Part shown: piece by piece, positions 8,550 through 38,309 of the stretch | How positions within the stretch are numbered: position 1 is the stretch's first letter | How the letters are laid out: each line of letters starts with the position of its first letter | Assembly (NCBI GenBank): GCA_035507095.1 | Contig: DATJOM010000074.1 | Span: 3,941-67,940 of the forward strand | Length of the DNA stretch: 64,000 nucleotides | DNA from: Candidatus Acidiferrum sp. | Lineage (GTDB): Bacteria; Vulcanimicrobiota; Vulcanimicrobiia; Vulcanimicrobiales; Vulcanimicrobiaceae | Direction of reading: 5' to 3' | Made by a program: the position numbers and the translations under genes | Notes under the pieces: generated by a model | The model's input: the letters and a program-made list of their open reading frames with translations, nothing else | The model's database searches: none | What the model was told of the DNA's origin: nothing

Positions 8550-8571
8550 AACCATTTATGAGGAGAGGGTC

Positions 8572-8910: not shown

Positions 8911-8912
8911 TT

Positions 8913-10525: not shown

Positions 10526-10529
10526 GGTG

Positions 10530-17496: not shown

Positions 17497-17700
17497 AAGG
17501 TTTCTCCTTCTGGCCTCGGTTCGCGTGCCGTCATGGCGGTGCGATCCGTGTCGAGAGGCCATATACCACCAGCCGTCCGTGGCGGGCGTAGTAAAGTAGC
17601 GCCGCCCATACGGACAGCCGTCCGAGTATACCATGGCCCCGGGGGCGGGTCCAGCGGGCGAAGGGTCTTCACCGCTAAGGCTCTCGGGCGAAGATACCGA

Positions 17701-18717: not shown

Positions 18718-18880
18718 GTAGTGCCGTCGACGTGGTCCCGATACCAAGTAACATGACGACCCTGACGTTCAATGGGCGCGCCCCAGGGGAACCTTTCGCT
18801 TACCAAGTTGTGTCGCGCGCCATGGTTTGGGGGCCCCACGAAGTGGGGGGCGCTGAGCCTCGGGCGGAGCGCCTTTCCAA

Positions 18881-20401: not shown

Positions 20402-20404
20402 GCG

Positions 20405-21292: not shown

Positions 21293-21331
21293 ACCACCAG
21301 GTTATCGACCGGCCCAGAAGGCCGGTTTAGA

Positions 21332-22102: not shown

Positions 22103-22104
22103 GG

Positions 22105-24137: not shown

Positions 24138-24139
24138 GA

Positions 24140-24733: not shown

Positions 24734-25914
24734 GAGCGCACGTTTGCGTTCTGCGCCACGATTTCATCGCGAATGTTCCATGGAAGAATCATCACAAAGT
24801 CGGGCTTGGCTTGGCCGAGGTACTCGGGACCGTAGACGGGGATGCGCGATCCAGGTAAGAGCGTACGCTGCTTCTCAGGATTGCGGTCGACGGTAAACGG
24901 CATCATGTCGGTACGAATCCCGCAATAATTGAGCAAGGTGTTGCCCTTGGCCGGCGCGCCGTATCCGGCGATCGTTTTTCTCTCGCCCGCCGCGCGCAGA
25001 AAGAATGCAAGGACCTCGCGCTTCTTGGCACGCACGCGCTCTTCGAACGACCGATAGATGTCCGGCTGATGCAAGCCGCGTTCGCGTTCTAGCGTGCGTA
25101 GCATCGCGACCGCGGGCAACTCCTCGCGCGCATCCGCCTCACGAACGATCCAATAGCGTAGCGAGCCCCCGTGCGTGGCCAGGCGATCGACGTCCCACAG
25201 GCGCAAGCCGTGCCGTCGCAGCACGTCTTCCATCGTTAGTAACGAGAAATACGAGAAATGCTCGTGATAGATCGTATCGAATTGCACGCCGTCGATGAGC
25301 GCGAGCAGATGCGGGATCTCGACCGTAATCGTGCCCTGGGGAGCCATCAGCGCTTCGAGCCCATCGATGAAATCGTGAAGGTCCGGCACATGCGCGATAA
25401 CGTTATTCGCTGCGACGAGCGCAGCCGCGCCGCGCGAATCCCGGATGCGCCGCCCGGTCTGGGCTCCCAAAAACGCTACTTCAGTCGGCACGCCCCGCTC
25501 CCGCGCAATCGCGGCCACGTTCGCGGCCGGCTCCACGCCATACGCCGTGAAGCCGCGCTCCACGAAGTATTGCAGCAGGTAGCCGTCGTTGCTCGCCGCC
25601 TCGGCAACGATGGCATCGGCCCGCAACGCCAGTCGTTCGATCGCACGATCGACATAGGCTCGGGAATGCGCGAGCCATGAGTCCGAGAACGAAGAAAGAT
25701 ACGCATAGTGCGAAAAGATATGCTCCGGCGGCTCGAATGCCGGCAATTGCACGAGGAAGCACACGTCGCAAACGCGTGGGTGGAGCGGATAGAACGGTTC
25801 CATCTCGCCCGCGCGATCCAATGGTATGTACGAGTTGGAAAGTGGCGAGACGCCCAGATCGACGAACGTTGTGGAAACCGGGGCGTCACAATTGCGGCAG
25901 CGAAAGTCGCTCAT
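24685..25914 (-). CDS. NDP-hexose C-methyltransferase (TylCIII-like)
   Basis: ORF trimmed to the ATG at 25914 (MSDFRCRNCDAPVSTTFVDLGVSPLSNSY... Zn-binding N-domain). SAM domain, and a C-terminal AGYGAPAKGNTLLNYCG domain. ATGA overlap with the rfbG stop. Confidence 0.8.
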   Translation of the reverse strand: MSDFRCRNCDAPVSTTFVDLGVSPLSNSYIPLDRAGEMEPFYPLHPRVCDVCFLVQLPAFEPPEHIFSHYAYLSSFSDSWLAHSRAYVDRAIERLALRADAIVAEAASNDGYLLQYFVERGFTAYGVEPAANVAAIARERGVPTEVAFLGAQTGRRIRDSRGAAALVAANNVIAHVPDLHDFIDGLEALMAPQGTITVEIPHLLALIDGVQFDTIYHEHFSYFSLLTMEDVLRRHGLRLWDVDRLATHGGSLRYWIVREADAREELPAVAMLRTLERERGLHQPDIYRSFEERVRAKKREVLAFFLRAAGERKTIAGYGAPAKGNTLLNYCGIRTDMMPFTVDRNPEKQRTLLPGSRIPVYGPEYLGQAKPDFVMILPWNIRDEIVAQNANVRSWRGRFVCAMPALEIF

Positions 25915-26981
25915 TGCTGCAAATATTCGCCGATCTGTGCGAGCGTCGTAGCGCGAACGTCGCCACCGGATAGCTGCGCTTTGTACCACACGGAAGTCCA
26001 CGCTACCGTCATATCGAGATCCAATTTCCCGCGCCATCCCAGAAGCTCATGCGCCTTGGTCGAGTCGAGGCGCAGTTGCGCAGCCTCATGCGGTCGTTCG
26101 TCGCCGTCGACCTCGATGCGCGCGGGCTTGCCGAGTCCTTCGAAGATCGCTGTGGCCAATTCTCGCACCGTGACGTGCGCCGAGCCGTCCGGACCGAAGT
26201 TCCACGCTCCACTGTCGCCGCGGTCGAGCGACATCGCGAGCATGAGGTACCCCACGAGCGGTTCGAGCACGTGCTGCCACGGCCGAACGGCGTTTGGAAA
26301 GCGCAATACGAGCGGCCGACCTGCCGCAACCGAGCGGATGATATCGGGCACTAAGCGATCGCTGGACCAATCGCCGCCGCCAATCACGTTCCCGGCGCGA
26401 GCGCTCGCGATACGCAGCTCAGAGGAGCCGTAGGACGCAGCATACGCATGCGTGACGAGTTCGGCCGCCGCCTTGCTACTACTATATGGGTCCTCGCCGC
26501 CGAGCGGCTCGTCTTCGCGGTAGCCCCAGATCCATTCACGGTTGCGGTAACACTTGTCGCTGGTAACGACAACGACGCCACGAACGCTTGGGGTCGAACG
26601 CGCAGCCTCGAGCAGGTGGGCCGTGCCGAGCACGTTCGTCGCGAAGGTCTCCACCGGCCGTTCGTAGCCGGCCCGAACCAGCGATTGCGCGGCAAGGTGA
26701 AAAATATATTCCGGCTTGACGCTTGCGATCCAACCTGCGACCGCGCTCTCGTCGCGAATGTCGTTGATGCGCGATTCGACGTCCGCGCTTAGATCAAGCA
26801 GGTCGTGGAGATTCGGTTGTGTAGGCGGAACCAACGCATACCCGCTAACCCGGGCTCCAAGATGCAACAGCAGCTCGCAAAGCCAGGCCCCTTTGAAGCC
26901 GGTGTGTCCGGTCACGAGAACGCGGCGGCCTTTCCAATACCCGGGAAGGTCCGCGCCGCGATTGGGACGATAGGATGGCAT
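25911..26981 (-). CDS. rfbG: CDP-glucose 4,6-dehydratase
   Basis: ORF trimmed to the ATG at 26981 (MPSYRPNRGADLPGYWKGRRVLVTGHTGFKGAWL...). YSSSKAAAE catalytic motif. Confidence 0.88.
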   Translation of the reverse strand: MPSYRPNRGADLPGYWKGRRVLVTGHTGFKGAWLCELLLHLGARVSGYALVPPTQPNLHDLLDLSADVESRINDIRDESAVAGWIASVKPEYIFHLAAQSLVRAGYERPVETFATNVLGTAHLLEAARSTPSVRGVVVVTSDKCYRNREWIWGYREDEPLGGEDPYSSSKAAAELVTHAYAASYGSSELRIASARAGNVIGGGDWSSDRLVPDIIRSVAAGRPLVLRFPNAVRPWQHVLEPLVGYLMLAMSLDRGDSGAWNFGPDGSAHVTVRELATAIFEGLGKPARIEVDGDERPHEAAQLRLDSTKAHELLGWRGKLDLDMTVAWTSVWYKAQLSGGDVRATTLAQIGEYLQQ

Positions 26982-26982
26982 T

Positions 26983-27753
26983 ATGCAGGCCGTGATTCTA
27001 GCCGGAGGCCTCGGTACCCGCATCTCCGAGGAAACGCACCTTCGCCCGAAACCGATGATCGAAATCGGTGGCGAACCCATTTTGTGGCATTTGATGAAGC
27101 TGTATTCGCACTACGGAATCAACGATTTCATCATCTGCCTCGGATACAAGGGCTACTTCATCAAAGAGTATTTCCATAACTACGCCCTTCACATGTCCGA
27201 TGTCACCATCGATCTGCGAGATAGTTCACTGACGGTCCACGAATCGACCGCGGAACCCTGGCGCATCACACTCGTCGATACCGGCGCCGAAACGCTGACG
27301 GGTGGCCGCCTTCGGCGTGTGCGCTCGTATCTGCAAGATGGTCCGTTTTGTTTTACGTACGGCGACGGCTTGAGCGATGTGAACATCGCCGAGCTGGTTG
27401 CGTACCATCGCAGCCAACGCCGCCTCGCAACGCTGACCGCGGTGCAACCACCGGGACGTTTCGGCGCAATCGTCCTTAACGCGGGCCGCGTCACGTCATT
27501 CCGGGAGAAGGCCGACGCCAGCGACGCCTGGATCAATGGCGGTTTCTTTGTGCTCGAGCCCGGCGTGATCGACTACATCCAGGGTGACGACACCGCGTGG
27601 GAAGCCCAGCCGCTCGAACGGCTGGCTGCCGAGGATCAACTCTCGGCATTTCAGCATCGCGGCTTCTGGCATCCGCTCGATACGCTGCGAGACAAAACGA
27701 TACTCGAGGCGCTTTGGGCAAGCGGCTCGCCGCCCTGGCGCCCCTCCGACTAG
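26983..27753 (+). CDS. rfbF: glucose-1-phosphate cytidylyltransferase
   Basis: MQAVILAGGLGTRISEETHLRPKPMIEIGGEPILWHLMKLYSHYGINDFIICLGYKGY, canonical RfbF. Its start codon is back-to-back with divergent rfbG (1-nt spacer). Confidence 0.92.
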   Translation: MQAVILAGGLGTRISEETHLRPKPMIEIGGEPILWHLMKLYSHYGINDFIICLGYKGYFIKEYFHNYALHMSDVTIDLRDSSLTVHESTAEPWRITLVDTGAETLTGGRLRRVRSYLQDGPFCFTYGDGLSDVNIAELVAYHRSQRRLATLTAVQPPGRFGAIVLNAGRVTSFREKADASDAWINGGFFVLEPGVIDYIQGDDTAWEAQPLERLAAEDQLSAFQHRGFWHPLDTLRDKTILEALWASGSPPWRPSD

Positions 27754-27769
27754 TGCCGATATATCAAGG

Positions 27770-30667
27770 GTGACCTCGCCGCACGCTGCGCCGATAGACG
27801 GCGTCAGCATCCTGATTACCTCGTACAACTACGCAAGCTATCTCCCGCGGGCGATCGCGAGCGCGCGCGCGCAAGAGGCCCCCAATCTCGAGATCGTCAT
27901 CGTCGACAATGCGTCGACCGACGCATCGTGGGATATAATTCAAGCTTCCGCAGCCGAAGACGCGCGAATCCGGCCGTTTCGTAACGATACGAACGTCGGC
28001 CCGCTCGGCAACCATATGCGCGCCGCCGAGCACGCCCGTCACGAGCGCCTCTTGTATCTGGCCGCCGACGACGTCTTCTTCCCCGGACATCTCACGACGT
28101 TGCTCGGCGCGCACGCGGCGCAACCCGACATCGATTATTTCTTCACGTCCTATGTAAAGATCGATGATGACGACCGGTTTCTCGCGTTCTTTGGCCATAC
28201 CGGGCACTTGCGGGCACCGTACGCAGGCGGTCGAAACGAATTCGCCGATCTGCTGACCTACGATTGCTACGCGTGCTTTCCCACGACGCTCTGCCGGCGT
28301 AGCGATCTCCTCGCGCATCCTTTCGGTGACGAGATCCTCGCAGCCGACCTTGACTACTATCTGCGCCTTGCATCCGAAGGCAAGCGCTTTGGTTTCATCA
28401 ATCGCGCGGGCATGGCGATCCGTCTCCACGAGAATGAGCTCTCCGGACACGAGCGTTACGTGACAACCGGGCGGCAACTCACCGATCATGTGCTGCTTCT
28501 CGAACGGCACCTCGTTCCCAGCAACAACCACCTCATCGCAGGGCGCGAAGACGGCATCCTTCGGCTGCTCAAAGCAAAGATCGACAATCTCGTCGCCTAT
28601 CCAGCGCGCTTTAACGAGCTTGCCGCGGACCTCGCACCGCGGATCAAAGTGATTGAAGAACGGCTTCTCGCTTCACGCGCGCGCACGCATCGCGGTGCGC
28701 TTTCCAATCCAACGGTCAGCGTCGTCCTGTTGTGCGACGACGACGTCCAGGCTTGCGTCGCGGCCGCACAGGCGCTGGCCGCGCAGGATTACGAACGCAA
28801 AGAGATCATCGCGGTCCATCGCGGTCACGTCGACACATCGAAGCTACTCGCGGGCGCGCTGCGCCACGTAAGCGCGAACATCATGGTCCAAGGTCCGGCC
28901 TATTCACAAGCCGTCTCGTGGAACGACGCGCTGCGGCTCTGTAACGGTGAGGTCGTCGTCTACGCGGATCGCTTGACGTCGTGGCAACCCGGCCACCTTC
29001 GGCGCCTTGCGGGACATTTCGAAAAAAACGACATTGACGTTGTGTTGGTCCGTGGGGACGCGCTGTTCACGCGCGGCGGCCTCGATGCAATACGTTTCGA
29101 CCACTTCTACGGCGGTGCGTTCGCCGAGGACGCCGCCGTCGGCGAAGGCGTTCCACTTGCAACCGTGGCACACCGTCGTTCGCTCGTCGACGAGGTCGGA
29201 GGGATTGAAGAACAGCTCCCAATGCTCGCAGAGTTCGATTTCGTCGCGCGTCTGGTTACCGGTCGCAAGATCGGCGTTGATACCGAGCTGACCGTCACGC
29301 TTCGCAAACCGCTCGAAACGCCGCATCCCGCGATTGCGAATCCGAATGCGTACCTTTCGGCACTACAGCAGCTCTTTAAGGCGAGGCAAATCGCCGGACC
29401 GATCGGCGAGCGACGCGCGCTGCACCTGCGGCGCGTGCAAGCGTCGCTCCAAGCCTTCGTTGCGAACAAGACGAACGACGCGGCGACCGCGTTCTTGCGC
29501 ACGGCGCGCGGTCTGGTCGAGCCGGCAACCCGGCACGAAGGTGACCGGCCGCGCATCCTCGTCATCGATGACCTCGTACCATACGACGAACTCGGGCGGG
29601 GGTATCCGCGGGCGCGCAAGCTGCTCGAGAGCCTGCGCGACGGCGGCTACGACGTGCTCTTCTATCCGCTGGTTACGCCAAAAGATACACCGCCACTCGA
29701 CTATGGCATCCCGGGCATCGAACCACTCTACGGCCGGGGCCCGGAGCTGCTCGCACTTACGCTCGCCGAGCTCTTGCCCACGCTCGACGCGCTGTGGGTC
29801 AGCCGCCCGCATAATATGAAGTCGGTGCTCGAATCGCTTGCGTCGCTGGGCATCACCGAGCGTCGCTGGGGCTTCATCTACGATGCCGAGGCGATCTATG
29901 TCGAGCGTCACGCCGTGCAGGCAGAACTCGCCGGCAGACCGATACCGAAAACCGAGTACGAAGCATATCTCACCGAAGAGCTGCGCCTCACCGACGCATG
30001 CGACGCTGTCTCCGTCGTCTCCGCAGCCGATCGCGCGACGTTCGGGCAACGCTTTAAGGGACCGATCGAGACGATCTCGTTTTCAAACGCGGCTGCGCCG
30101 ACGAACGCGCCCTTCGCGCAGCGCGACGGCGCGCTCTTCGTCGGTGCCGTCGAACCGGGCAGTCCGAACGAGGATTCCCTGCTGTGGTATTGCGAGCACG
30201 TTGCGCCGCGTGTCGCGGCGACGCTCGGCTCGCCCGTGCGACACGCCGGCGTCATGGCCTCCGAGCGCGTGCGCGCCTATTCGCCCGAACGCGTCACACT
30301 TCTCGGTCTCGTGCCCGACCTGCGACCCGTCTACGAGCGCGCGCGCATCTTCATCGCGCCGACGCGTTTCGCTGCGGGACTTCCGCAAAAAGTGTACGAG
30401 GCGGCGGCGCACGGCGTCCCCGTGATCGTCACGCCGCTGCTCGCTCGCCAACTCGGCTGGAAAGACGGCGAGGAGTTACTCGTTGCGGAGACACCCGACC
30501 AGTGGGTCGCGGCGATCGAGCGGCTTTATACCGACGCAGCGTTGTGGCAGCGGTTGCGCGAGCGGGCGCTCGAAGCCGTGCGCCGCAGCGTCGCACCCGA
30601 TGCGTTTTCGGCAAGCGTCCTTCGCGTCGTCAGCGAAGCGCTTTCGGCCAGAAAGGCCTCAGCCTAG
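27770..30667 (+). CDS. three-domain glycosyltransferase (GT2 - GT2-like - GT4/GT1-like)
   Basis: ORF 27584..30667 trimmed to the GTG at 27770. Domain 1: VSILITSYNYASYLPRAIASARAQ...IVIVDNASTD...AADD. Domain 2: VSVVLLCDDDVQACVAAAQALAAQDY...IIAV. C-terminal RILVIDD...GLPQKVYEAAAHGVPVIVT is a GT4-type segment. Confidence 0.8.
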   Translation: MTSPHAAPIDGVSILITSYNYASYLPRAIASARAQEAPNLEIVIVDNASTDASWDIIQASAAEDARIRPFRNDTNVGPLGNHMRAAEHARHERLLYLAADDVFFPGHLTTLLGAHAAQPDIDYFFTSYVKIDDDDRFLAFFGHTGHLRAPYAGGRNEFADLLTYDCYACFPTTLCRRSDLLAHPFGDEILAADLDYYLRLASEGKRFGFINRAGMAIRLHENELSGHERYVTTGRQLTDHVLLLERHLVPSNNHLIAGREDGILRLLKAKIDNLVAYPARFNELAADLAPRIKVIEERLLASRARTHRGALSNPTVSVVLLCDDDVQACVAAAQALAAQDYERKEIIAVHRGHVDTSKLLAGALRHVSANIMVQGPAYSQAVSWNDALRLCNGEVVVYADRLTSWQPGHLRRLAGHFEKNDIDVVLVRGDALFTRGGLDAIRFDHFYGGAFAEDAAVGEGVPLATVAHRRSLVDEVGGIEEQLPMLAEFDFVARLVTGRKIGVDTELTVTLRKPLETPHPAIANPNAYLSALQQLFKARQIAGPIGERRALHLRRVQASLQAFVANKTNDAATAFLRTARGLVEPATRHEGDRPRILVIDDLVPYDELGRGYPRARKLLESLRDGGYDVLFYPLVTPKDTPPLDYGIPGIEPLYGRGPELLALTLAELLPTLDALWVSRPHNMKSVLESLASLGITERRWGFIYDAEAIYVERHAVQAELAGRPIPKTEYEAYLTEELRLTDACDAVSVVSAADRATFGQRFKGPIETISFSNAAAPTNAPFAQRDGALFVGAVEPGSPNEDSLLWYCEHVAPRVAATLGSPVRHAGVMASERVRAYSPERVTLLGLVPDLRPVYERARIFIAPTRFAAGLPQKVYEAAAHGVPVIVTPLLARQLGWKDGEELLVAETPDQWVAAIERLYTDAALWQRLRERALEAVRRSVAPDAFSASVLRVVSEALSARKASA

Positions 30668-30672
30668 CACCC

Positions 30673-31686
30673 GTGCGGACCTGTATCGTTCACATCGGCA
30701 CGCATAAGACCGGAACGACCTCGCTCCAGGTGTTCATGGCGCAGAATCGCACGACATTAGCGTCCGCCGGCCTGTACTTGCCCGACGCCGGCCGGCCTGC
30801 GCAAATCCCGATTGGGAATCATCAGTTGGCCTGGGATCTCCTCATGCGGGGCGAGAGCAAGGATCTGCCGTTGCTGACCGATGAGTTACGGAAGAACACG
30901 ATCGAGGGCGCCCTGATTACATCCGAAGATTTCGATCGTCTTCACGTCCGCCCCGAGACGATCGAACGTCTTGCCGAGGCGATCCGGTCCGCGGGTTACG
31001 TGCCGAAAGTCGTGGTCTATTTTCGACCGCAAGCCGGTTATGCAGAGTCCATTTACGTCGAGATGATCAAGCACGGCCACGTTCATCCGCTCGCAAACTT
31101 CCTCGAGCCTAGCATCTCGAACGGAATGTACCGACAGGGCGACTCACCGGTCGTCATGGATTTTTTGTATACGCGAATTCTCGAGCCCTGGGTTCGAGTG
31201 TTCGGGAAAGAACATGTAATCGTCCGAGCCTACGATCCCGCACGCGCGAGCGAGCACATCTTCCAGGATTTCTTCAACGTGCTCATGCAGGCCGTTCCCG
31301 GCTTCGGCCGCAAGCCCTTAGAGCTCGCAGTCAGTCAACCGCGCGCAAACGACAGCCTGACATTCGGTGCCTTGCTCGACACAGCGTTTGCGAAGCTATT
31401 CCCCCATGGCCGTCCGGAAGCCGAGCCGCGCGGACTACTGCGTTCCAAGCTTCCAGACTTTCCGGCCGATCTTTTAAATGCGCGCTACGCGCTCTTCTCG
31501 CGCGATGAGACGCTCAAGCTGCTCGCAGCGCTGGGTCCCGACAATGCGGTCATCGAGCGAGAGTACGGCGCACATATCGGCTTTCAAAACGAGCGCGATA
31601 TTGCTCCGCAAGACGATCCTGTCTGGCGAAAAGCAACGGTAGAACGCGCGATCTTCGATCAATTCCTTGCGCTCTGGACGTCCTAG
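30673..31686 (+). CDS. putative PAPS-dependent sulfotransferase
   Basis: ORF 30184..31686 trimmed to the GTG at 30673, 6 nt after the GT stop. (M)RTCIVHIGTHKTGTTSLQ resembles the 5'-PSB loop, and VVVYFRPQAGYAES sits in the 3'-PB position. About 337 aa. Confidence 0.62.
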   Translation: MRTCIVHIGTHKTGTTSLQVFMAQNRTTLASAGLYLPDAGRPAQIPIGNHQLAWDLLMRGESKDLPLLTDELRKNTIEGALITSEDFDRLHVRPETIERLAEAIRSAGYVPKVVVYFRPQAGYAESIYVEMIKHGHVHPLANFLEPSISNGMYRQGDSPVVMDFLYTRILEPWVRVFGKEHVIVRAYDPARASEHIFQDFFNVLMQAVPGFGRKPLELAVSQPRANDSLTFGALLDTAFAKLFPHGRPEAEPRGLLRSKLPDFPADLLNARYALFSRDETLKLLAALGPDNAVIEREYGAHIGFQNERDIAPQDDPVWRKATVERAIFDQFLALWTS

Positions 31687-32444
31687 AAAAATAGACGGAC
31701 GCCCACGATCACCAATATCAGCGAAAGCCCGACGCGAAAGGCACGTTCGGGGAGGCGCTTCGCAAGCGGCGTCCCGACGAGCACGCCCGGAATCGAACCT
31801 GCAAGCAGCAGCCCCGCGAGCCGCACGTTTACATCGCCCAGTTTGAAGTGACCGATAATCGCCGGCACGAGCAAGACCACGGCAAAGGCCACATCGGTAC
31901 CGACCAGCGTGCGTAGCTGAGCTTGCGAGAGCACGAGCAAGAGCAGCGGCAGGGTCAGTGACCCGCTGCCGATCGAAGTGATACTGACCAGCGTCCCGAC
32001 CACGAAGCCCGTGACCACGAGCGGCACGTGCGGCAGCGCCTGCGGCGGCGCGTCTTTGTCGGCCGCGATCGATTTCGTGAACGCGACCGCGGCAGCGGCA
32101 ACGAGCAAGGCGACGCCGAGCGCGATACGTAGCACGTGATTTACCGTGCCGAGCGGGAGATGCGCATGCAGCCATCCGGTGATCAAGACGCCAACGATCG
32201 CGCCGGGTACGCCACCCAGCGAGAGAAAGAGCAGCGCACCGTAATGCACGGTTTGCGCGCGCATGTGCGTAAGGAATGCAACGATCTTCGTGCCGAGGCT
32301 AAAGAGCAGGTCCGAACCGATCGCGGTGCTCGCGTTGTAGCCGAGAAACAAAACGATGAGCGGCGTCGTAAGCGAGCCGGCTCCGACGCCCGAATATGAG
32401 ATGCACAAGCCGACGATGAACCCGACGAGAATCGTCTGAATCAT
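31683..32444 (-). CDS. TSUP (TauE/SafE) family anion permease
   Basis: 253 aa and about 8 hydrophobic helices, with the two-repeat pattern typical of the TauE/SafE family. 4-nt overlap with the cysNC stop. Confidence 0.78.
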   Translation of the reverse strand: MIQTILVGFIVGLCISYSGVGAGSLTTPLIVLFLGYNASTAIGSDLLFSLGTKIVAFLTHMRAQTVHYGALLFLSLGGVPGAIVGVLITGWLHAHLPLGTVNHVLRIALGVALLVAAAAVAFTKSIAADKDAPPQALPHVPLVVTGFVVGTLVSITSIGSGSLTLPLLLLVLSQAQLRTLVGTDVAFAVVLLVPAIIGHFKLGDVNVRLAGLLLAGSIPGVLVGTPLAKRLPERAFRVGLSLILVIVGVRLFF

Positions 32445-34273
32445 CGCGTCCTCACGTGCGATTCGATGTACTCTAACAACAACGCTGCGGACTCCTCGAT
32501 ACGATGGGTCGCCGTATCAACGATCAGTTCAGGACGTTCGGGCACTTCGTACGGCGAGGAAACGCCCGTGAAATGCGCGAGTTCGCCGCGCCGCGCACGT
32601 CCGTAGTGGCCCTTGACGTCTCGGCCTTCCGCCGTGACCAGATCGCACGAGACGTAAATCTCATGAAAGCCGTTCGGATAGGCGGAGCGCGCGAGTTCGC
32701 GATCGGCGGCGAACGGCGAGATCAGCGCGCAGATAACGATCATGCCGGCATCGGCAAAAACGCCGGCGACGGCCGCGGTGCGCCGCACGTTCTCCGAGCG
32801 ATCCTCGTCGCTGAACCCGAGATCGACGTTCAGCGACGTGCGCAGCGTATCGCCGTCAAGCACGTAGACTTGGCGACCGCGTTCGAAGAGCATGCGTTGC
32901 GCGGCCATCGCGACCGTAGATTTGCCCGCGCTCGGCAATCCGGTGAGCCAAAACACGCCGCCGGCGTGGCCGTTGCGAACCGTGCGCTCCACCCGCTCGA
33001 CCGACGACGTCATCGCAACGACGTTGGTTGCGCCCTCGCCACGTGCATGACCGAGCACCGCGTCGATGCGACCGCCGGCTACTATTGCACCGCCGCGCAG
33101 CAGCACAAAACGGCCGAGGCTCGACTCGGAAAGATGCGGGTCACCGGCGATCAGCTCGCGTGAGACCAACGACACCACGCCGACGTCGCCGCTGCACAGC
33201 TCTTCCGCTTCGCGCGGTTCGAGCGTGTCCGGATCGATCATCTCCTCGATCTTCTGCAGTGTCACCGGGATCTCGCGCGTACCCAAGCGCATGCGCAGTG
33301 CTTCGCCCGAGCCGACGGGATCGCGGCCGAGCCAGACAACCGTCGTTTGCACGACGTGGCCGAGCTCGGGCGCGTCCGTCGCGCGGCTGCCCACGGCACC
33401 GCGGTCGACAAACACTCGCGCGTCGAGTTCGACCGCGACCGACGATCCCGCCGACGCACGTTCGACTTCGCGCGGCCACTGGTGGACGGTGACGACGCGC
33501 GCGCCGGTCTGCAGGGGCCAAAAGGTAAGAAACTCGCCGCGCTCGAGCGTGCCGCTTTCAACCCGACCCGCGATCAGACGTTTGCCGTCGCGCCGATAGA
33601 CGTCTTGCACGACGAAGCGCAGGGGACCGTCCTGGCGCACGTCGGTGCGCTCGAGCGTTCCGAGCGCCTCGAGCAAGGTCGGCCCGCGCCACCATGCCGT
33701 CAGCGGACCGGGCTTCACGATGCCGTCGCCGCTGCGCGCCGCCACCGGCACGATCGCGCGCGCGTGCATCCCGAGCTGTTCGAGAAACGCGCGCACCTCG
33801 CTCGCACGCTGCTCGTAGGCAGCCTGCGGGTCTTTGGCGAGATCGAGCTTGTTGATTGCCACGAGTACGTTGGCAAACCCGAACCAACGCAAGAAGAGCG
33901 CTTGCCGCCGCGTTTGCAACGTGATGCCTTCGTCGGCGGCGACGACCATTATCGCAGCGTCGACTTCGGATGCGCCGCTGAGCAGATTGCGAATGAGCTC
34001 GCGATGGCCGGGCGCGTCGACAAAAACGAACTCGGCGTCGGGCGTGCGCACCCAGATGCGCGTGAGATCCAGCGTGATCGCCTGATCGCGTTCCAATTGG
34101 AATGCGTCGAGTAGAAACGAGTACTCGATCGGAACGCCGCGCTTGGCACTGGAGCTTTCGAGCTCTTCGAGTTTTGCCGGCGTCACAAGTCCGAGATCGA
34201 CGAGGAGGCGGCCGAGGATCGTGGACTTGCCGGCATCCACGTCGCCGACCATTACAATGCGAACGTTCTTCAC
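32441..34273 (-). CDS. cysNC: bifunctional sulfate adenylyltransferase subunit 1 / adenylylsulfate kinase (CysN-CysC fusion, NodQ-like)
   Basis: N-terminal GTPase (GDVDAGKSTILGRLL, DAPGH, NKLD). C-terminal APS kinase P-loop (FWLTGLPSAGKSTVA). 610 aa. Confidence 0.92.
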   Translation of the reverse strand: MKNVRIVMVGDVDAGKSTILGRLLVDLGLVTPAKLEELESSSAKRGVPIEYSFLLDAFQLERDQAITLDLTRIWVRTPDAEFVFVDAPGHRELIRNLLSGASEVDAAIMVVAADEGITLQTRRQALFLRWFGFANVLVAINKLDLAKDPQAAYEQRASEVRAFLEQLGMHARAIVPVAARSGDGIVKPGPLTAWWRGPTLLEALGTLERTDVRQDGPLRFVVQDVYRRDGKRLIAGRVESGTLERGEFLTFWPLQTGARVVTVHQWPREVERASAGSSVAVELDARVFVDRGAVGSRATDAPELGHVVQTTVVWLGRDPVGSGEALRMRLGTREIPVTLQKIEEMIDPDTLEPREAEELCSGDVGVVSLVSRELIAGDPHLSESSLGRFVLLRGGAIVAGGRIDAVLGHARGEGATNVVAMTSSVERVERTVRNGHAGGVFWLTGLPSAGKSTVAMAAQRMLFERGRQVYVLDGDTLRTSLNVDLGFSDEDRSENVRRTAAVAGVFADAGMIVICALISPFAADRELARSAYPNGFHEIYVSCDLVTAEGRDVKGHYGRARRGELAHFTGVSSPYEVPERPELIVDTATHRIEESAALLLEYIESHVRTR

Positions 34274-35073
34274 ATGTACCCCGTGGTGCGCAAACGTTCG
34301 AACGCGTCTTCGCTCTCGTTGTCCATGGCACGGCCGGCGCGTTCCGGTTCGCGCGTCACTTCCAACTCAGCGATGATCTTCTCGAGCGTGTCGGCATTGC
34401 TCGCAATCGGAAACGTGATGTTGCTTTCCCCGAGCGAGCGAAAGCGCTTCCCCGCCTTCGCAAGATACAGCGGAACGTATGGAATCTGCTCGCGCAACGT
34501 GTAGCGCCAGATGTCCAGCTCGGTCCAATGCAAGAGCGGATGGATTCGCACGTGTGCGCCATCCGGCACGTCGTATGCATAGTAATCCCACAGTTCGGGC
34601 GGTTGTCCGCGCGGATCCCACGAACCGTCGGCGTTGCGCGGGCTGAAGATCCGCTCTTTCGCGCGAATCGCCTGTTCGTCGCGCCGAATGCCGAGAATGA
34701 TACCGCGATAGCCTTCACGCGCGAGCAGCGCGCGCAAACCCGCCGTCTTGCGCGCGGCGTGACGCGCTGCCGGCGGCAAGGTTTGATCGACACTGCTCTC
34801 CGGCGGACATAGTTCATTTGCGACCGGGAGATTCCACTGCGTAACCAAGCGGTCGCGGAACGCGTAGACCTCCTCGAACTCCATGCCCGTGTCGAGCAGC
34901 ACGACCGGAAACGGCACCTCGCCGAGGAAGGCCTTACGGACCATCCACAACAGTGCGGTCGAGTCTTTGCCGATCGACCACAGCATCGCAAGCGGTGAGA
35001 CGCACGAGAAGGCTTCACGCAGGATGAAGATCGTGCGTGCTTCGAGTTCGTCGAGGTAGTCGAGGCGGGACAT
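34270..35073 (-). CDS. cysD: sulfate adenylyltransferase subunit 2 (NodP-like)
   Basis: PAPS_reduct-fold CysD pattern (SIGKDSTALLWMVRKAF...; C-terminal ...DNESEDAFERLRTTGYM). 4-nt overlap with the cysNC start. Confidence 0.92.
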   Translation of the reverse strand: MSRLDYLDELEARTIFILREAFSCVSPLAMLWSIGKDSTALLWMVRKAFLGEVPFPVVLLDTGMEFEEVYAFRDRLVTQWNLPVANELCPPESSVDQTLPPAARHAARKTAGLRALLAREGYRGIILGIRRDEQAIRAKERIFSPRNADGSWDPRGQPPELWDYYAYDVPDGAHVRIHPLLHWTELDIWRYTLREQIPYVPLYLAKAGKRFRSLGESNITFPIASNADTLEKIIAELEVTREPERAGRAMDNESEDAFERLRTTGYM

Positions 35074-35170: not shown

Positions 35171-36109
35171 ATGTCACGGTACTTCGAGTTTTTCGGCCTC
35201 GAACGCGACCCGTTCTTGGATACGGCCGACCCGTTTTTCTATTGCGAGTTCGGCGCGTTGCGTAAGGCGAAGGAGCGGCTTTACGCCTCGGTCGACGCGT
35301 CGCGCGGCCTCACCGTGATTTTGGGTGACCCAGGCACCGGAAAGACCAGCCTCTCGGGCGCGCTCGAGCAGGAGCTCCTTGCCGACGACCGGGTCGTGCT
35401 CGCGAAGATTCTCGATCCCGCGTTCGCGACCGAGATCGAGTTTCTGATCGCTATCGGGCGCGTCTTCGGCCTCGCGCTGCCGCCGCGATCGAGCGCCGCC
35501 CTCAAGAATGCGCTCAAGAACTTCTTCTTCGAGACGGCGATCCTCGAGAAGCGCAACCTCGTGCTGACGATCGACGAAGCGCAGAACCTCAGTGACGAGA
35601 ACCTCGAAGCACTGCGCTTGCTCTTGAACTATCACGTGCCGCAGCGAAAGCTGCTCAATATCTTGCTCTTTGGGCAGAGCGAGCTAGCCGACCGCATCCG
35701 CGCCAAGGGGAACCTCGAAGATCGCGTCGATGGGTGGATTCGGCTCGCCCGGCTCGATCCGGGAATGGCCTCGGCGGTGCTCGATTTCCGCCTTTCCAAG
35801 GCGGGCTTGCTGCCCGAGCGCCAACTCTTCACGCCGGACGCGCGCACCCAGCTGGTCGACGCCGCAGACGGCCTGCCGCGCCGGCTCACGATGCTGGCGC
35901 ACGCCGCGATGCAAGAAGCGGCTGACCGCGCGAGCACCCTGGTCAACGAAGATCACGTCCGCTCGGCGATGCTGGCGCGCGGCATCGCGCCGCACGCGCC
36001 CGCGTCCCCCGTACGGACCGAGAACGGGGTCGTCGAAGCCGGCGAGGCCATTGCGACGCAGCCGGCGCGTGGGCTCCTTGGCCGCCTCTTTGCACGCCGC
36101 TCGTCATGA
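35171..36109 (+). CDS. ExeA/MshM-like AAA+ ATPase
   Basis: N-terminal FFGLERDPF motif. Walker A GDPGTGKTS and Walker B LVLTIDEAQNL. Overall layout of ExeA-type (AAA_22) secretion/EPS-associated ATPases. Confidence 0.75.
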   Translation: MSRYFEFFGLERDPFLDTADPFFYCEFGALRKAKERLYASVDASRGLTVILGDPGTGKTSLSGALEQELLADDRVVLAKILDPAFATEIEFLIAIGRVFGLALPPRSSAALKNALKNFFFETAILEKRNLVLTIDEAQNLSDENLEALRLLLNYHVPQRKLLNILLFGQSELADRIRAKGNLEDRVDGWIRLARLDPGMASAVLDFRLSKAGLLPERQLFTPDARTQLVDAADGLPRRLTMLAHAAMQEAADRASTLVNEDHVRSAMLARGIAPHAPASPVRTENGVVEAGEAIATQPARGLLGRLFARRSS

Positions 36110-37545
36110 ATCGCGAGCCGGACTTTGAGTCCAGCGCCGACATGCGACTGCTCGAGCTGCAACGCTCGTCGCTCGGGCTCGTGGCGCCGGAGCGCGCGGC
36201 GTGGGAATCTCGCTACGCCGTAGACTCCACCCCCGGTGTCGACGTCACGCTGGAAACGCCGGCCCCGAGCAGCGCGGTGCTCGCGGTAACGCTGACGGCA
36301 ACCCCGCCGGGGGACGTGATCCCCGGCACGGTCATTACGTACGCGCTGAGCCTGGTGAACGACGGAGCCGCGGCGGCGACCGCGGTGGTCGCGGCGGTGC
36401 CGCTCCCTGCCGGCGTCTCATACCGGCTCGGCTCGCTGCAAATCGACGGCAGGCCAGCCGACGACAGCAGTGCCGATCGCCTCTTCGCAAGCGGGTTCGA
36501 GCTGCGCACCGTGGCCCCGGGAAGTCGCGCGACGCTGCTCTGGAAAGTCGGCGTCCGGATGGGCACCAAGCCCCTGATCGTCATTCCGCAGGTGCGCGCG
36601 CGCGCGACCGCGATCATCGGTGGCGGCCCGGTGGTCGTCGAACGCAAGGGCGCAACCGGCGCCTTCGCCGGAGAACTCGCCGCAGCCGATCGCGTCATGT
36701 TTGAGCCGCAACCCTTGATTCCGGTCGAGATCCCGGCTGATGAGCTCCCCATCTACGAACTCGACGCCGAAGAGCAAATCGTCTACGAGGCCGCCGATGC
36801 AGCGCTGTCCAGCGCCGCCCCGCCACCCGAACCGCTCGCCGAGCCGGAACCGCAGATCATCCCCGAACCGGCAACGGAGCCGGCACCGCCGCGCGAGGCC
36901 GTCGTCCTGTACGGCGCGCTCGAGCGTCCTACACTCGCCTTCTTCGAGCGCGTTTTCAATGGGTCGAAAGATCCGACGATCTTACAGCATTGCATCTTTG
37001 CAAGCGCGCTGGCGTGCGCCGTTGACGTCGACGGCACCGACGCCGTCGGCTTGCGGGCGCACCTCTCGGCGCAGTCGCAGATTCTTCATCGCGCCTCTTT
37101 GCATGAAAAGCTCGGCAAGAAAGAGCCGATCAGCGAGTACGCCGGCCAGTTGCTCGCCAAGATCGACGCGATCGCGCCGGTCCCGGTGCATCCCGTCGCG
37201 CAATTTAGCACGGATCGTCTGGTGCTCGCGAACGAACTTCACGAGCCCGCACTCGTGGTCGTGCGCAAGATCGCCGAAGAACGGGAGCGTTGGGACTTCA
37301 TCAAAGCGCGTCAACTCACGCTCGCGTTGCAGGCACAGCGCGTCGTGCTGGCGGACGACGCAAAGGCTGCCAACATCGACAACGCACTTCGGGCCTACGC
37401 ACAACACGCGATGACGGTCTTACAGAAGCTCTTCGTGCGCTTGCGACTGGATAAAACCACGGGCGTGCTCTTCCAGACCGAGCCGTCGCTCGATAACGCC
37501 GCGCGCGCGCTGCTCGCCGCGTGCGCCGCCGCAATGCCGAGTTGA
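36106..37545 (+). CDS. hypothetical protein: DUF11-like beta domain, proline/glutamate-rich linker, helical C-terminal domain
   Basis: ATGA overlap with the upstream gene. LTATPPGDVIPGTVITYALSLVNDGAAAATAVVAAVPLPAGVSYRLGSLQIDG resembles the conserved-repeat (DUF11) fold pattern. Linker PPPEPLAEPEPQIIPEPATEPAPP. No signal peptide seen. Confidence 0.55.
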   Translation: MNREPDFESSADMRLLELQRSSLGLVAPERAAWESRYAVDSTPGVDVTLETPAPSSAVLAVTLTATPPGDVIPGTVITYALSLVNDGAAAATAVVAAVPLPAGVSYRLGSLQIDGRPADDSSADRLFASGFELRTVAPGSRATLLWKVGVRMGTKPLIVIPQVRARATAIIGGGPVVVERKGATGAFAGELAAADRVMFEPQPLIPVEIPADELPIYELDAEEQIVYEAADAALSSAAPPPEPLAEPEPQIIPEPATEPAPPREAVVLYGALERPTLAFFERVFNGSKDPTILQHCIFASALACAVDVDGTDAVGLRAHLSAQSQILHRASLHEKLGKKEPISEYAGQLLAKIDAIAPVPVHPVAQFSTDRLVLANELHEPALVVVRKIAEERERWDFIKARQLTLALQAQRVVLADDAKAANIDNALRAYAQHAMTVLQKLFVRLRLDKTTGVLFQTEPSLDNAARALLAACAAAMPS

Positions 37546-38309
37546 AACTCCTTCTCGGCATTCCCAGCGCCGGTGCACCCGCCGCCCCATTTCTCGAGAG
37601 CCTCGCAAAGCTCGAACTCCCGCCGTCGGCCGAGCAATTCACGCGCTGCGTGATCACCGGTAACTATGTGCCGGCGCAACGCGATCTCATCGTTGAACGC
37701 GCGCTCGAATCGAGCGCCGACATCCTCATCATGTGTGACGACGATATGGTGTTACCGCCGCATGCGGTCACCCGGCTCTGCGCAACGCTCGAAGCAAACC
37801 CGCGAGCTGCAATCGCCGGCGCGCTCTACTATTCGCGCGATGGCTTCCGGCCTATGGTCGTCGATAAGTGGAACGAGCACGACACGCGGACAGCCATCAT
37901 CCCCGCCTTCGATCGCGAGCCGGTGGCCGTCGACGGTGTCGGCTTCGGATGCGTCGCCTTGCGGGTTAGCGCGTTACGCGAATTGATGCCACCGTACTTC
38001 GCAGCGCACATCTTCGTGGAACGCGAAGCCGGCCGCGTTCGGGTATGCGACGAGGACTATCTGTTTTGCGCGAGAGTGCGGCGAGCGAGATGGTCGGTCG
38101 TGCTCGACCCAAACGTTCGCTGCGGGCACTACAACCGCCAGCTCCAGCGCACGATGCCGGATGTATGGGAAGGACCTGAAGTTACCGCGCAGGCGCGCAT
38201 CGCCGCGCTCGTTGACGGACGCCCGACGCTGATTCCGGAACAAGACGTCCGGGAAAGCACGGCGGAATCGCAGGTTCAGGCCGATTTGCGGTACATCATC
38301 GTACCGTAG
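37521..38309 (+). CDS. GT-A (family 2-like) glycosyltransferase-like protein
   Basis: ILIMCDDDMVLPP (DxD-type) and VCDEDYLFCARVRRARWSVVLDPNVRCGH (GT2 ED..L/F.C.R motif). Alternative TTG start at 37542 forms a TTGA overlap with the upstream stop. Confidence 0.55.
   Translation: MRRRNAELKLLLGIPSAGAPAAPFLESLAKLELPPSAEQFTRCVITGNYVPAQRDLIVERALESSADILIMCDDDMVLPPHAVTRLCATLEANPRAAIAGALYYSRDGFRPMVVDKWNEHDTRTAIIPAFDREPVAVDGVGFGCVALRVSALRELMPPYFAAHIFVEREAGRVRVCDEDYLFCARVRRARWSVVLDPNVRCGHYNRQLQRTMPDVWEGPEVTAQARIAALVDGRPTLIPEQDVRESTAESQVQADLRYIIVP

Follow-up and report, generated by a model that had tools for sequence, protein, structure and literature searches.

A lineage-wide sulfate-activation cassette beside a predicted sulfotransferase in a flagellin glycosylation island of the Eremiobacterota, and its possible use in glycan sulfation

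Does a sulfate-activation operon that converges on a sulfotransferase-like gene, between genes for glycan synthesis and genes for the flagellum, make PAPS for sulfating the glycan built next door, or does it belong to general sulfur assimilation? The question is raised by four genes in a stretch of 64,000 nucleotides, here called the window, from an uncultured, flagellated soil bacterium of the Eremiobacterota (Baltobacteraceae type). A preliminary description had read the four genes as a dedicated, NodPQ/NodH-like sulfation module. In this study, we report the annotation of these genes and of their neighbours, the comparison of the locus with related loci, and the readings that the combined evidence allows.

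The cassette and the convergent 337-aa gene

The four ORFs were found with the coordinates and overlaps previously claimed for them:

30673-31686, forward strand: sulfotransferase-like gene, GTG start, 337 aa, last gene of the glycosyltransferase operon
31683-32444, reverse strand: TSUP/TauE permease gene, 253 aa, last gene of the cysD-cysNC operon
32441-34273, reverse strand: gene for a CysN-CysC fusion, 610 aa
34270-35073, reverse strand: cysD, 267 aa, first gene of its operon

As read from the sequence, cysD and cysNC share a 4-nt overlap (GTGA), cysNC and the permease gene overlap by ATGA, and CTAG at 31683-31686 is common to the convergent stop codons of the permease and sulfotransferase genes. 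The sulfotransferase gene starts 5 nt downstream of the stop codon of the upstream glycosyltransferase gene. The search for sigma-28-type promoters gave none ahead of cysD. Reductases for sulfite, PAPS or APS are also lacking from the window, as had been noted: none was seen when 50 of its 54 called ORFs were compared with Pfam, and tblastn with the CysH and sulfite reductase of a relative returned no match.

CysD matched PF01507 (1e-31) and the curated family model NF003587 (302 bits, cutoff 195), contains the PP-loop SIGKDS and is paired through the overlap with the adjacent CysN GTPase gene; among the matches listed, its orthologues in Eremiobacterota loci are 79-96% identical. It is predicted from these features to be the catalytic small subunit of ATP sulfurylase. 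The fusion protein has the domains GTP_EFTU (113 bits), GTP-eEF1A_C and APS_kinase, and matched the APS-kinase model TIGR00455 at 207 bits (cutoff 138.7). The loops GDVDAGKST and GLPSAGKST were both found in its single chain, and the GTPase motifs G1, G3 and G4, together with the APS-kinase P-loop, DGD, DLGF, ISP, KGxY and FTGxxxPYE, are intact and conserved across its clade. Against the full-length bifunctional model NF004035 it scored 495.6 bits, below the cutoff of 715; it can be described as having the architecture of the bifunctional family, with a sequence outside the curated subfamily threshold. The predicted product combines an ATP sulfurylase GTPase subunit with an APS kinase and makes PAPS, and by their domains and motifs the two cys genes encode a complete route from sulfate to PAPS.

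The permease (PF01925 at 1.3e-40, 140 bits, cutoff 32.6) has eight hydrophobic segments in a polytopic topology, and is the only polytopic membrane protein within 15.7-49.4 kb. TSUP homologues lie after cysNC in loci L001, L003, L009, L010, L016, L020, L093, L169 and L170. CysZ of Corynebacterium glutamicum, a member of the TSUP family, is a sulfate transporter (PMC5840216, PMC1266029), and the window's permease is a probable sulfate importer, import being the presumed direction of transport.

The 337-aa protein gave no match to Pfam (Sulfotransfer_1-5, Stf0) or NCBIfam models, even at E = 1. The GTG start of its gene is supported, because its homologues all begin MRTCIVHIGTHKTGTT. A 5'-PSB-type motif, HKTGTTSL (K-x-G-T-T/S), occupies residues 11-18 and a 3'-PB-type motif, RPQAGYAES (R-x7-S), residues 118-126, and K12, E85, R118 and S126 are completely or almost completely conserved. 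The family comprises 39,775 representative clusters at E <= 0.001. Sulfotransfer_1, _3 and _4 were each matched by just 4 of 37 distant family members. The family profile matched the sulfotransferase structure PDB 3rnl (8.6e-6) with both motifs aligned, the R-x7-S motif falling on RNPVDRAFS. The AlphaFold model (pLDDT 94.2) has a sulfotransferase fold, its best Foldseek matches being 3rnl (6.9e-5), heparan-sulfate 3-O-sulfotransferase-3 (6xl8, 1t8t), NDST1 and TPST2, with modest TM-scores of 0.48-0.63. The profile and structure searches uphold the identity first suggested for this gene, and on its motifs, profile match and predicted fold we regard the protein as a predicted sulfotransferase.

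The cassette in related loci

Thirteen informative loci carry the window's cysD-cysNC type, and nine of them are flagellar, the window included. Every one of the nine has at least one sulfotransferase gene (one to three) abutting the cassette. The window's own sulfotransferase family is present at the cassette in the window, L001, L003, L004 (two copies), L013, L169 and L170; it is replaced by an unrelated Sulfotransfer_3-like protein in L009 and L010, a protein of that kind is present as an extra copy in L013, and in L170 a protein with a weak Stf0-type PF09037 match (precomputed annotation) also abuts the cassette. At least three unrelated families are represented, those other than the window's having recognisable motifs and weak Pfam matches, and that unrelated sulfotransferases occur in one and the same place argues strongly that they are functionally coupled to the cassette. 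A PHP gene adjoins the cassette or the sulfotransferase gene in L004, L013, L170, L171, L021 and L095; its best match is a 3',5'-nucleoside bisphosphate phosphatase (6.9e-43, below the cutoff), and this PAP-phosphatase-like match, taken with the position of the gene, points to PAPS turnover.

The cassette might nevertheless be a general assimilatory system that feeds an unlinked PAPS-type CysH and sulfite reductase, the synteny being inherited and sulfation a side use at most, as for cysDNC of Mycobacterium tuberculosis. Consistent with this, the window's type is common (65% identity or more in at least 120 protein clusters, from Aquilonibacter, Cybelea, Tumulicola and Baltobacteraceae) and occupies a constant position next to rmlA/rmlB and rpsB. 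L012, L016, L171 and L172 have kept it without flagellar genes or any neighbouring sulfotransferase; a leftover csrA at the L172 locus indicates that the flagellar cluster was lost there, and the persistence of the cassette under such circumstances implies a function not limited to a flagellar glycan. One cysD per genome was seen among the matches listed, including genomes with contigs of 1.1-2.5 Mb, and in several genomes that are nearly complete the copy in the cassette appears to be the sole one. Operons for PAPS-type CysH with a fused CysNC exist in the phylum (L050), and in L074 a TSUP homologue lies inside an assimilatory sir-cysH-TSUP-cysD-cysN operon.

Against an assimilatory role, neither cysH nor sir adjoins the cassette in the window or in any other of the 13 loci of its type. 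Elsewhere in the CysD subfamily such linkage is common (30 of about 70 loci), and the recurrent sulfotransferases of the flagellar loci also argue against assimilation. Moreover, the CysNC proteins of the window's type form a monophyletic, long-branch clade with the G1 loop GDVDAGKST, whereas sir-linked relatives have GHVDHGKST, and the CysNC of L016, a member of this clade, is separate from the sir-linked CysNC of L050 although both come from the same genus-level group. We therefore consider assimilation unlikely as the main explanation. The two roles are compatible, and a dual role is possible.

These comparisons change how the locus should be described. The combination of CysD with a fused CysNC had been taken as a NodPQ-type signature, but it is not diagnostic of a dedicated system, because a single assimilatory operon of L050 combines cysD and a fused cysNC with PAPS-type cysH and sulfite reductase; a fused CysNC also accompanies most of the alphaproteobacterial proteins within this CysD subfamily, in many cases beside sir/cysH. 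The marks of a NodH system were not seen either: the window ORFs scanned include no nod genes, and no second, housekeeping cysD was found among the matches listed for genomes with the window's type, which are metagenome-assembled. This last result tends to favour the cassette as the only sulfate-activation locus of the organism. Rather than a dedicated module wedged into the island, the PAPS cassette is a conserved, lineage-wide locus, possibly the sole CysDN-type sulfate-activation locus, and not an island-specific accessory.

The surrounding island and the candidate acceptor

Pfam annotation of the neighbouring ORFs confirmed that the module lies between glycan and flagellar genes. The features of the island, identified by Pfam except where stated, are:

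16777..27753: sugar-nucleotide block, dTDP and CDP 6-deoxyhexose pathways with C- and O-methyltransferases
27584..30667, forward strand: three-domain soluble glycosyltransferase (GT2, GT2, GT4; Glycos_transf_2 in two stretches, Glyco_trans_1_4)
35171-36109, forward strand: ExeA-like AAA ATPase (Pfam/NCBIfam), in a trio (35171..38309) divergent from cysD
36106-37545, forward strand: DUF11-like protein of 479 aa (Pfam/NCBIfam), member of the trio
37521-38309, forward strand: GT2-like protein (Pfam/NCBIfam), member of the trio
38686-39144, reverse strand: fliS (PF02561)
39147-41147, reverse strand: fliD (PF02465 and PF07195)
43575-46172, reverse strand: double-GT2 glycosyltransferase
46181-48046, reverse strand: GT2-TPR glycosyltransferase, directly after flagellin
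48144-49418, reverse strand: flagellin gene
49499..49525, reverse strand: sigma-28-type promoter match (TAAA-N14-17-CCGATA), upstream of flagellin
about 49624-49782, reverse strand: csrA (tblastn, 70% identity), just upstream of the promoter match

The sugar-nucleotide block contains RmlB-like, RmlA, TylF-like, epimerase and two C-methyltransferase genes, together with CDP-glucose-dehydratase-like and glucose-1-P cytidylyltransferase-like genes, and its products are all soluble. The three-domain glycosyltransferase has no transmembrane segment; its true start probably lies near 27767, since the longest ORF would run into the gene before it. A GT2-type gene also immediately precedes the sulfotransferase gene in L001, L004, L006 and L007. 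The promoter pattern has a single match in the window, and 7 of 100 shuffles gave one match. The central region of the flagellin is Ser/Thr-rich, and among NCBIfam models the GT2-TPR protein comes closest to the SunS peptide glycosyltransferase family (8.6e-29, below the cutoff). Sugar-nucleotide and soluble glycosyltransferase genes are thus interleaved with flagellin, fliD and fliS, as in a flagellin glycosylation island, and the layout is conserved in relatives. No genes for a lipid carrier, flippase, polymerase, exporter or initiating phosphoglycosyl transferase were found in the island. This absence, together with the interleaving with fliS, fliD and flagellin, makes a flagellin O-glycan the most likely acceptor.

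The distribution of sulfotransferase orthologues agrees with such an acceptor. Those with at least 38% identity lie in the same flagellar island in all nine informative loci (the window, L001, L003, L004, L006, L007, L013, L094 and L095). A point against the reading proposed below is that in four of these, L006, L007, L094 and L095, no cassette is adjacent.

Flagellin as the target is plausible, and another acceptor could apply. PAPS and the sulfotransferase may serve a glycan on another protein that is glycosylated in the cytoplasm, such as the DUF11-like one, a general protein O-glycosylation system, or a cell-surface polysaccharide with its export genes at another site. The trio of AAA, DUF11-like and GT2 genes separates the cys/sulfotransferase genes from fliS in every flagellar locus examined, and rmlA/rmlB, a GT2 gene and methyltransferase genes remain next to the cassette in relatives without flagellar genes. 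In L141, from another lineage, a distant member of the sulfotransferase family (29% identity) is convergent with cysNC-cysD in a polysaccharide cluster. These genes immediately follow those for two giant DUF11 surface proteins, and an ABC-2 exporter is encoded next to them. However, the constant presence of the orthologues in the flagellar island, the lack there of export and polymerisation genes, and the peptide-glycosyltransferase-like gene directly after flagellin all speak for flagellin, and the window's DUF11-like protein has neither a signal peptide nor a transmembrane segment; we regard a different acceptor as distinctly improbable. That the 337-aa protein is some other P-loop-like enzyme, for example a kinase, lying beside the cys genes by coincidence, would accord with the lack of a curated family match and with lower-ranked Foldseek matches to gluconokinase and zeta-toxin-type kinases, but is very improbable, since HKTGTT is of the 5'-PSB type K-x-G-T-T and not a Walker A G-x4-G-K-[ST], the 3'-PB motif aligns with 3rnl, the top Foldseek matches are all sulfotransferases, distant family members pass the Sulfotransfer_1 and _3 models, and unrelated sulfotransferase-like proteins occupy the same genomic position.

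We propose the following pathway, with local sulfation as its outcome. The TSUP permease would import sulfate, CysD would adenylate it to APS with the reaction driven by the CysN GTPase, and the fused CysC domain would phosphorylate APS to PAPS. The 337-aa gene would be co-transcribed, and probably translationally coupled, with the three-domain soluble glycosyltransferase gene, and would encode a cytoplasmic, PAPS-dependent sulfotransferase that places a sulfate ester on the methylated deoxyhexose glycan built by the surrounding island. We infer that the acceptor is the flagellin O-glycan or its nucleotide-sugar precursor. Variable flagellar-glycan genes, including sulfotransferases of several families, are clustered around the conserved cassette.

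What survives of the initial proposal, local PAPS production for a neighbouring glycan, is the PAPS route, the sulfotransferase, the island and the recurrent link between them; the private, dedicated module does not. We hold with moderate confidence that a lineage-wide source supplies PAPS for local sulfation of the adjoining glycan, which is most probably that of flagellin. More tentatively, and with some doubt, it may be suggested that flagellated Eremiobacterota of the Baltobacteraceae type sulfate their flagellin O-glycan through interchangeable sulfotransferases docked on a locus for sulfate import, PAPS synthesis and PAP recycling, and that the sulfation pattern would be a surface feature of the filament that diversifies rapidly.

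Sulfate esters are uncommon on bacterial glycoconjugates, the known examples being mainly the Nod factors and LPS of rhizobia, the sulfolipids of mycobacteria and certain exopolysaccharides. If the proposal is true, it would provide the first case of a PAPS-derived sulfate ester on a bacterial flagellum and add a new chemical class to flagellar glycosylation. It would also give a first functional context to a sulfotransferase family that is very large and uncurated, and unrelated sulfotransferases would be seen to swap in and out beside a fixed PAPS source. For annotation, cysD with a fused cysNC and no nearby reductase genes is insufficient for the label 'dedicated'. Since these bacteria are uncultured and the chemistry is so far a prediction, the practical consequences are limited at present.

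Comparison with known systems

The flagellin glycosylation islands of Pseudomonas, Campylobacter and Clostridioides difficile resemble the present one in having sugar-nucleotide and soluble glycosyltransferase genes amid flagellin, fliD and fliS. The type B flagellin glycan of C. difficile bears a taurine sulfonate (PMC5207245), so that a negatively charged sulfur group occurs naturally on such glycans; however, this is a C-S sulfonate added as taurine and not a PAPS-derived ester, and its addition involves neither a sulfotransferase nor PAPS genes. Sulfated N-glycans are known from archaeal flagellins (PMC2952790). The literature searched described neither a sulfotransferase in any bacterial flagellin glycosylation island nor a sulfated glycan on any bacterial flagellin.

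Among assimilatory systems, C. glutamicum has an operon of the cysIXHDNYZ type with a TSUP sulfate permease (PMC1266029, PMC5840216). This operon and the L074 and L050 loci of the Eremiobacterota share with the window cysD, cysN(C) and TSUP genes in one operon and the same short-CysD subfamily, but include cysH and sulfite reductase, which none of the 13 window-type loci does; in the flagellar ones among these, sulfotransferase genes are present instead.

In rhizobia, NodP/NodQ and NodH sulfate the Nod factor (Roche et al. 1991, as cited in PMC4216712). The likeness lies in a CysD homologue, a fused CysN-CysC and a PAPS-dependent carbohydrate sulfotransferase occurring together without reductase genes, with sulfate activated for glycoconjugate modification and not for cysteine, as is predicted here from the genes. 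In contrast, the rhizobial genes are a plasmid-borne extra copy beside housekeeping cysDN, whereas the cassette described here is conserved and possibly the only copy. The NodH acceptor is a lipochitooligosaccharide, and here a protein- or nucleotide-linked deoxyhexose glycan is predicted; the window's sulfotransferase differs further in matching no curated family model, and its partner operon in including a TSUP permease gene.

The Xanthomonas proteins RaxP and RaxQ (ATP sulfurylase and APS kinase) make PAPS for the dedicated sulfotransferase RaxST (PMC4216712). There too a PAPS-making pair serves a sulfotransferase acting on a secreted molecule, but the substrate of RaxST is a peptide tyrosine instead of a sugar, raxPQ lie apart from raxST, and the flagellar and glycan context is absent. 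In Mycobacterium tuberculosis, CysD-CysNC feeds both cysteine synthesis and the Stf sulfotransferases, an example of one locus, with cysD and a fused cysNC, serving sulfotransferases and assimilation alike. There the sulfate goes to trehalose glycolipids and the sulfotransferase genes lie scattered, whereas in the flagellar islands described here one to three such genes abut the cassette; if the cassette is the sole activation system, mycobacterial cysDNC would nevertheless offer the best analogy.

Cassette and flagellar glycan island

The module was read directly from the sequence, where the four open reading frames, their overlaps and the shared CTAG were as the preliminary description had them, and both P-loops that it quoted (GDVDAGKST and GLPSAGKST) were seen in the translation of one CysNC chain.

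Genes of the module and its surroundings (window positions)
30673-31686, + strand: sulfotransferase-like gene (GTG start, 337 aa)
31683-32444, - strand: TSUP/TauE permease (TauE PF01925, 140 bits)
32441-34273, - strand: CysN-CysC fusion, 610 aa (APS kinase TIGR00455, 207 bits against a cutoff of 138.7; EF-Tu-type GTPase domain)
34270-35073, - strand: CysD, 267 aa (NF003587, 302 bits against a cutoff of 195)
Left of the module: housekeeping genes proS, ispG, rseP, cdsA, uppS and frr
Right of the housekeeping genes: sugar-nucleotide block (RmlB-like, RmlA, TylF-like O-methyltransferase, two C-methyltransferases, epimerase, CDP-glucose-dehydratase-like, glucose-1-P-cytidylyltransferase-like)
After this block: three-domain glycosyltransferase GT2-GT2-GT4, with its stop 5 nt before the sulfotransferase start
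35171-38309, right side, divergent from cysD: trio of ExeA/GspA-like AAA ATPase, 479-aa DUF11-like protein and GT2-like protein
Beyond the trio: fliS, fliD, two unknown genes, double-GT2, GT2-TPR glycosyltransferase, flagellin, csrA, fliW, flgL, flgK, flgN, flgIHAGF

Curated models (Pfam and NCBIfam) confirmed three of the four module proteins, namely TSUP, CysNC and CysD. The match of CysNC to the full-length bifunctional model NF004035 was strong (1.9e-148, 496 bits) but stayed under the cutoff of 715, and the protein is thus, judged by its sequence, a divergent CysNC. The cysD/cysNC overlap is GTGA and the cysNC/TSUP overlap ATGA, and the convergent stops of the sulfotransferase and TSUP genes have CTAG (31683-31686) in common. 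A meaning for this palindrome was rejected, as it is merely two convergent stop codons overlapping, and in relatives the overlap is 7-12 nt. The G+C content of the sulfotransferase gene is 58.4% (GC3 68.9%), against 61.6-65.2% (GC3 76-78%) in the adjoining cys genes, which fits a sulfotransferase belonging to the variable island and a cassette belonging to the conserved backbone.

The permease is the only polytopic membrane protein encoded between 15.7 and 49.4 kb, and no flippase, polymerase, exporter or initiating phosphoglycosyl transferase was found in that interval; the island therefore fits cytoplasmic, flagellin-type protein glycosylation rather than an exported polysaccharide. Among NCBIfam models, the GT2-TPR protein comes closest to the SunS peptide-glycosyltransferase family. 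In all flagellar loci examined, the trio is conserved at its place between fliS and the cys/sulfotransferase genes; its 479-aa member combines a single DUF11-type domain with a Pro-rich linker and a helical C-terminal region. The trio may take part in modifying flagellin, or may be a second target of glycosylation. Within the window no cysH, sulfite reductase or PAP phosphatase gene was found, in agreement with the earlier statement that sulfite and PAPS/APS reductase genes are missing from it.

The csrA gene (about 49624-49782, - strand) lies between fliW and flagellin, giving the FliW-CsrA-flagellin arrangement. Membership of cysD in the flagellar regulon through a sigma-28 promoter was rejected, the sole sigma-28-type match in the window (49499-49525, - strand) being located upstream of flagellin; a generic promoter and terminator scan of the window remained at chance level. 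The RmlB-like dehydratase (16777-18717) carries an N-terminal extension of ~310 aa that matches no family. The longest open reading frame of the 1027-aa glycosyltransferase runs 170 nt into the preceding cytidylyltransferase-like gene (27584-27753), and its true start is therefore probably near 27767.

The 337-aa protein and its family

The 337-aa protein gave no Pfam or NCBIfam match, even at E = 1, and a single-sequence search of the PDB found nothing; it was resolved solely by a family profile and a predicted fold. A database search yielded 48 relatives, the distant ones bearing Sulfotransfer_1 or _3 domains, and across 37 aligned family members the sole recurrent Pfam signal was Sulfotransfer_1, _3 and _4. 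The alignment revealed a K-x-G-T-T loop (HKTGTTSL) and an R-x7-S motif (RPQAGYAES), with K12, E85, R118 and S126 invariant or nearly so. With its lysine in the sulfotransferase position, the loop differs from a Walker A motif. The family profile matched the sulfotransferase of PDB entry 3rnl (8.6e-6), and both motifs aligned with the PAPS-binding motifs of that protein. An AlphaFold model built on the alignment was confident (pLDDT 94.2, pTM 0.90), and its best PDB fold matches were sulfotransferases first (3rnl, heparan-sulfate 3-O-sulfotransferase-3, NDST1 and TPST2), with modest TM-scores. From these motifs, the profile match and the modelled fold we conclude that the protein is a predicted PAPS-dependent sulfotransferase of an uncurated family, which bears out the earlier assignment, made before any HMM or structure search.

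The family comprises 39,775 representative clusters at E <= 0.001 and 4,701 at <= 1e-30, among them proteins 640-1680 aa long in which two to four stretches match, probably as tandem domains. That so large a family has a member in the window without a Pfam or NCBIfam match points to a big hole in curated coverage.

By database matches and locus titles, the relatives belong to Eremiobacterota (Baltobacteraceae, Aquilonibacter, Cybelea). Orthologues (38-60% identity) were located in the flagellar island, recognised by the trio and fliS-fliD, in all nine loci informative for context, namely the window and the related loci L001, L003, L004, L006, L007, L013, L094 and L095. The cys cassette adjoins the orthologue in six loci (window, L001, L003, L004, L013 and L093, the last on a contig that stops short of flagellar genes) and is not adjacent in four (L006, L007, L094 and L095). 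More distant members (31-33% identity) were found elsewhere in flagellar islands (L104, L105, L169) or in unrelated contexts (L005, L008). At L141 (1-17918), in a high-GC lineage that is unrelated, a member with 29% identity is convergent with cysNC-cysD, the stop codons overlapping; it directly follows two DUF11-repeat proteins of >1000 aa and has an ABC-2 exporter, a GT2-GT4 fusion and WcbI as neighbours. The pairing of this sulfotransferase family with PAPS genes thus recurs in a polysaccharide or surface-protein context.

Distribution and chromosomal site of the cassette

A CysNC tree and a genome scan for CysD placed the window type in a monophyletic, long-branch clade found in Eremiobacterota only, with identities of 79-96% (CysD) and 64-92% (CysNC) and at least 120 protein clusters at >=65% identity. 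Near-complete relatives with this type include those of GCA_963818925.1 (contig CAWFTN010000001.1), CAVTRC010000001.1, ERZ25039592 (contig_2690) and ERZ25039543 (contig_3436), and contigs of this kind come from peat or soil samples (JGI Ga0335073-75). The G1 loop of the clade is GDVDAGKST, against GHVDHGKST in relatives, and the catalytic motifs are all intact. Nine of the 13 informative loci of this type are flagellar, and in all nine one or more sulfotransferase genes directly abut the cassette. Members of the window's family occupy this position in the window, L001, L003, L004 (two tandem paralogues), L013, L169 and L170; a non-homologous Sulfotransfer_3-like protein (motifs GMHRSGTS and TRHPNEVGGS) substitutes in L009 and L010 and is present as an additional copy in L013, and L170 has an additional protein with a weak Stf0-type (PF09037) match. 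No other evidence speaks as strongly for a use of the cassette's PAPS in sulfation as this exchange of unrelated sulfotransferase families at a single position. Neither cysH nor sir was found near the cassette at any of the 13 loci; one or both are present at at least 30 other loci of the short-CysD subfamily, mostly of Alphaproteobacteria, with L050, L074 and L028 from Eremiobacterota. A PHP-family gene, whose best NCBIfam match is 3',5'-nucleoside bisphosphate phosphatase (6.9e-43, under cutoff), lies next to either the cassette or the sulfotransferase gene in L004, L013, L170, L171, L021 and L095.

Several loci showed further peculiarities. In L003 (11785-14106), a relative with 54% identity, cysNC is in fragments of 274 and 283 aa and cysD in a fragment of 163 aa, which may reflect frameshifts of long-read assembly or real decay of the cassette. 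The Eremiobacterota-type cassette also turns up in contigs and proteins assigned to Candidatus Acidoferrum, Acidoferrales or Binatia (L010, P0337 and P0390), at 88-96% identity and in the same synteny; mis-binning of the contigs is the probable explanation. L020 (8617-13396) holds a third Eremiobacterota cysD-cysNC-TSUP type (CysD 73% and CysNC 42% identical to those of the window), located in another sugar cluster (GT2, DegT, RmlC fusion, RmlD) without a reductase; in its relative L021 the PHP gene is divergent from cysD.

The preliminary description proposed a dedicated module wedged between glycan and flagellar genes, with CysD plus fused CysNC as its NodPQ-like signature. An accessory insertion between the sulfotransferase and AAA genes was hinted at by L006 and L007, and was rejected on the evidence of L012, L016, L171 and L172, where the same chromosomal site holds the cassette without the island. 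L012, L016 and L172 have the recognisable flanks of the window, with photolyase and an ABC transporter at one end and rmlA/rmlB, rpsB, tsf, frr, uppS and cdsA at the opposite end; the flagellar/glycan island has disappeared completely, together with all sulfotransferases, and cysD-cysNC is kept. In L172 csrA, which separates fliW from flagellin in the window, persists alone, a sign that the flagellar cluster of this relative was secondarily lost. L171 retains PHP, cysD and cysNC beside rmlA/rmlB and non-flagellar glycan genes. The fused CysNC likewise fails as a NodQ-like marker, since L050 (Candidatus Cybelea) carries sulfite reductase, a PAPS-type cysH (NF002537, 268 bits against a cutoff of 154), cysD and fused cysNC in one assimilatory operon (7497-12672). 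The CysH of L050 has about five close relatives (76-78% identity), followed by those of Azospirillaceae and other Alphaproteobacteria at 62-69%, and this pattern suggests that the operon was horizontally acquired.

In the list of the 80 best CysD loci no Eremiobacterota genome occurs more than once, even where contigs reach 1.1-2.5 Mb; most of the genomes are metagenome-assembled, and the pattern only hints at one CysD locus per genome within that set. Given the L050 operon, the retention of the cassette without the island and the single CysD listed per genome, the cassette is best seen as a conserved CysDN-type PAPS locus of the lineage, possibly its sole one, around which variable flagellar-glycan genes and sulfotransferases cluster. 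The framing as a dedicated module holds only in part, the insert reading and the NodPQ signature being abandoned.

Proposed pathway and comparison with known systems

In the proposed pathway, the TSUP permease would import sulfate, as suggested by CysZ of C. glutamicum, a sulfate transporter of this family (PMC5840216, PMC1266029), and by a 38%-identical TSUP protein in the assimilatory operon of L074. APS would be made by CysD and the CysN GTPase, and PAPS by the fused CysC domain, in line with established family function and intact motifs. The soluble 337-aa enzyme, presumably co-transcribed with the three-domain glycosyltransferase, would sulfate a sugar of the island-built glycan or a nucleotide-sugar precursor thereof. 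PAP would be removed by an enzyme encoded elsewhere in the source genome, a slot that the PHP phosphatase would fill in relatives. The position in the island, the lack of export machinery and the peptide-glycosyltransferase-like GT2-TPR gene beside flagellin point to flagellin as the most likely carrier. Functional coupling of cassette and sulfotransferase is highly probable, and the full pathway, with flagellin as target, is put forward with moderate confidence. The finding is real and coherent, the sulfation chemistry being predicted and the organisms uncultured; the one cultured member of Eremiobacterota is without flagella.

Literature searches returned nothing relevant on a sulfotransferase in bacterial flagellin glycosylation or on sulfated bacterial flagellin O-glycans, and nothing useful on how Eremiobacterota assimilate sulfur. 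For bacterial flagellins they yielded a single sulfur-bearing glycan, that of C. difficile type B, which carries taurine sulfonate (PMC5207245) and differs chemically and biosynthetically from the predicted sulfate ester. The sulfated glycans of archaeal flagellins are N-linked (PMC2952790). NodPQ/NodH and RaxPQ/RaxST follow the same logic as the module of the window (PMC4216712), and mycobacterial CysDNC with the Stf sulfotransferases would be the better analogy if the cassette is the only activation system. From all three, the window differs in its acceptor context, a flagellar glycosylation island, in its own sulfotransferase family and in the TSUP permease encoded in the operon, and the window type as a whole in its interchangeable, multi-family set of sulfotransferases.
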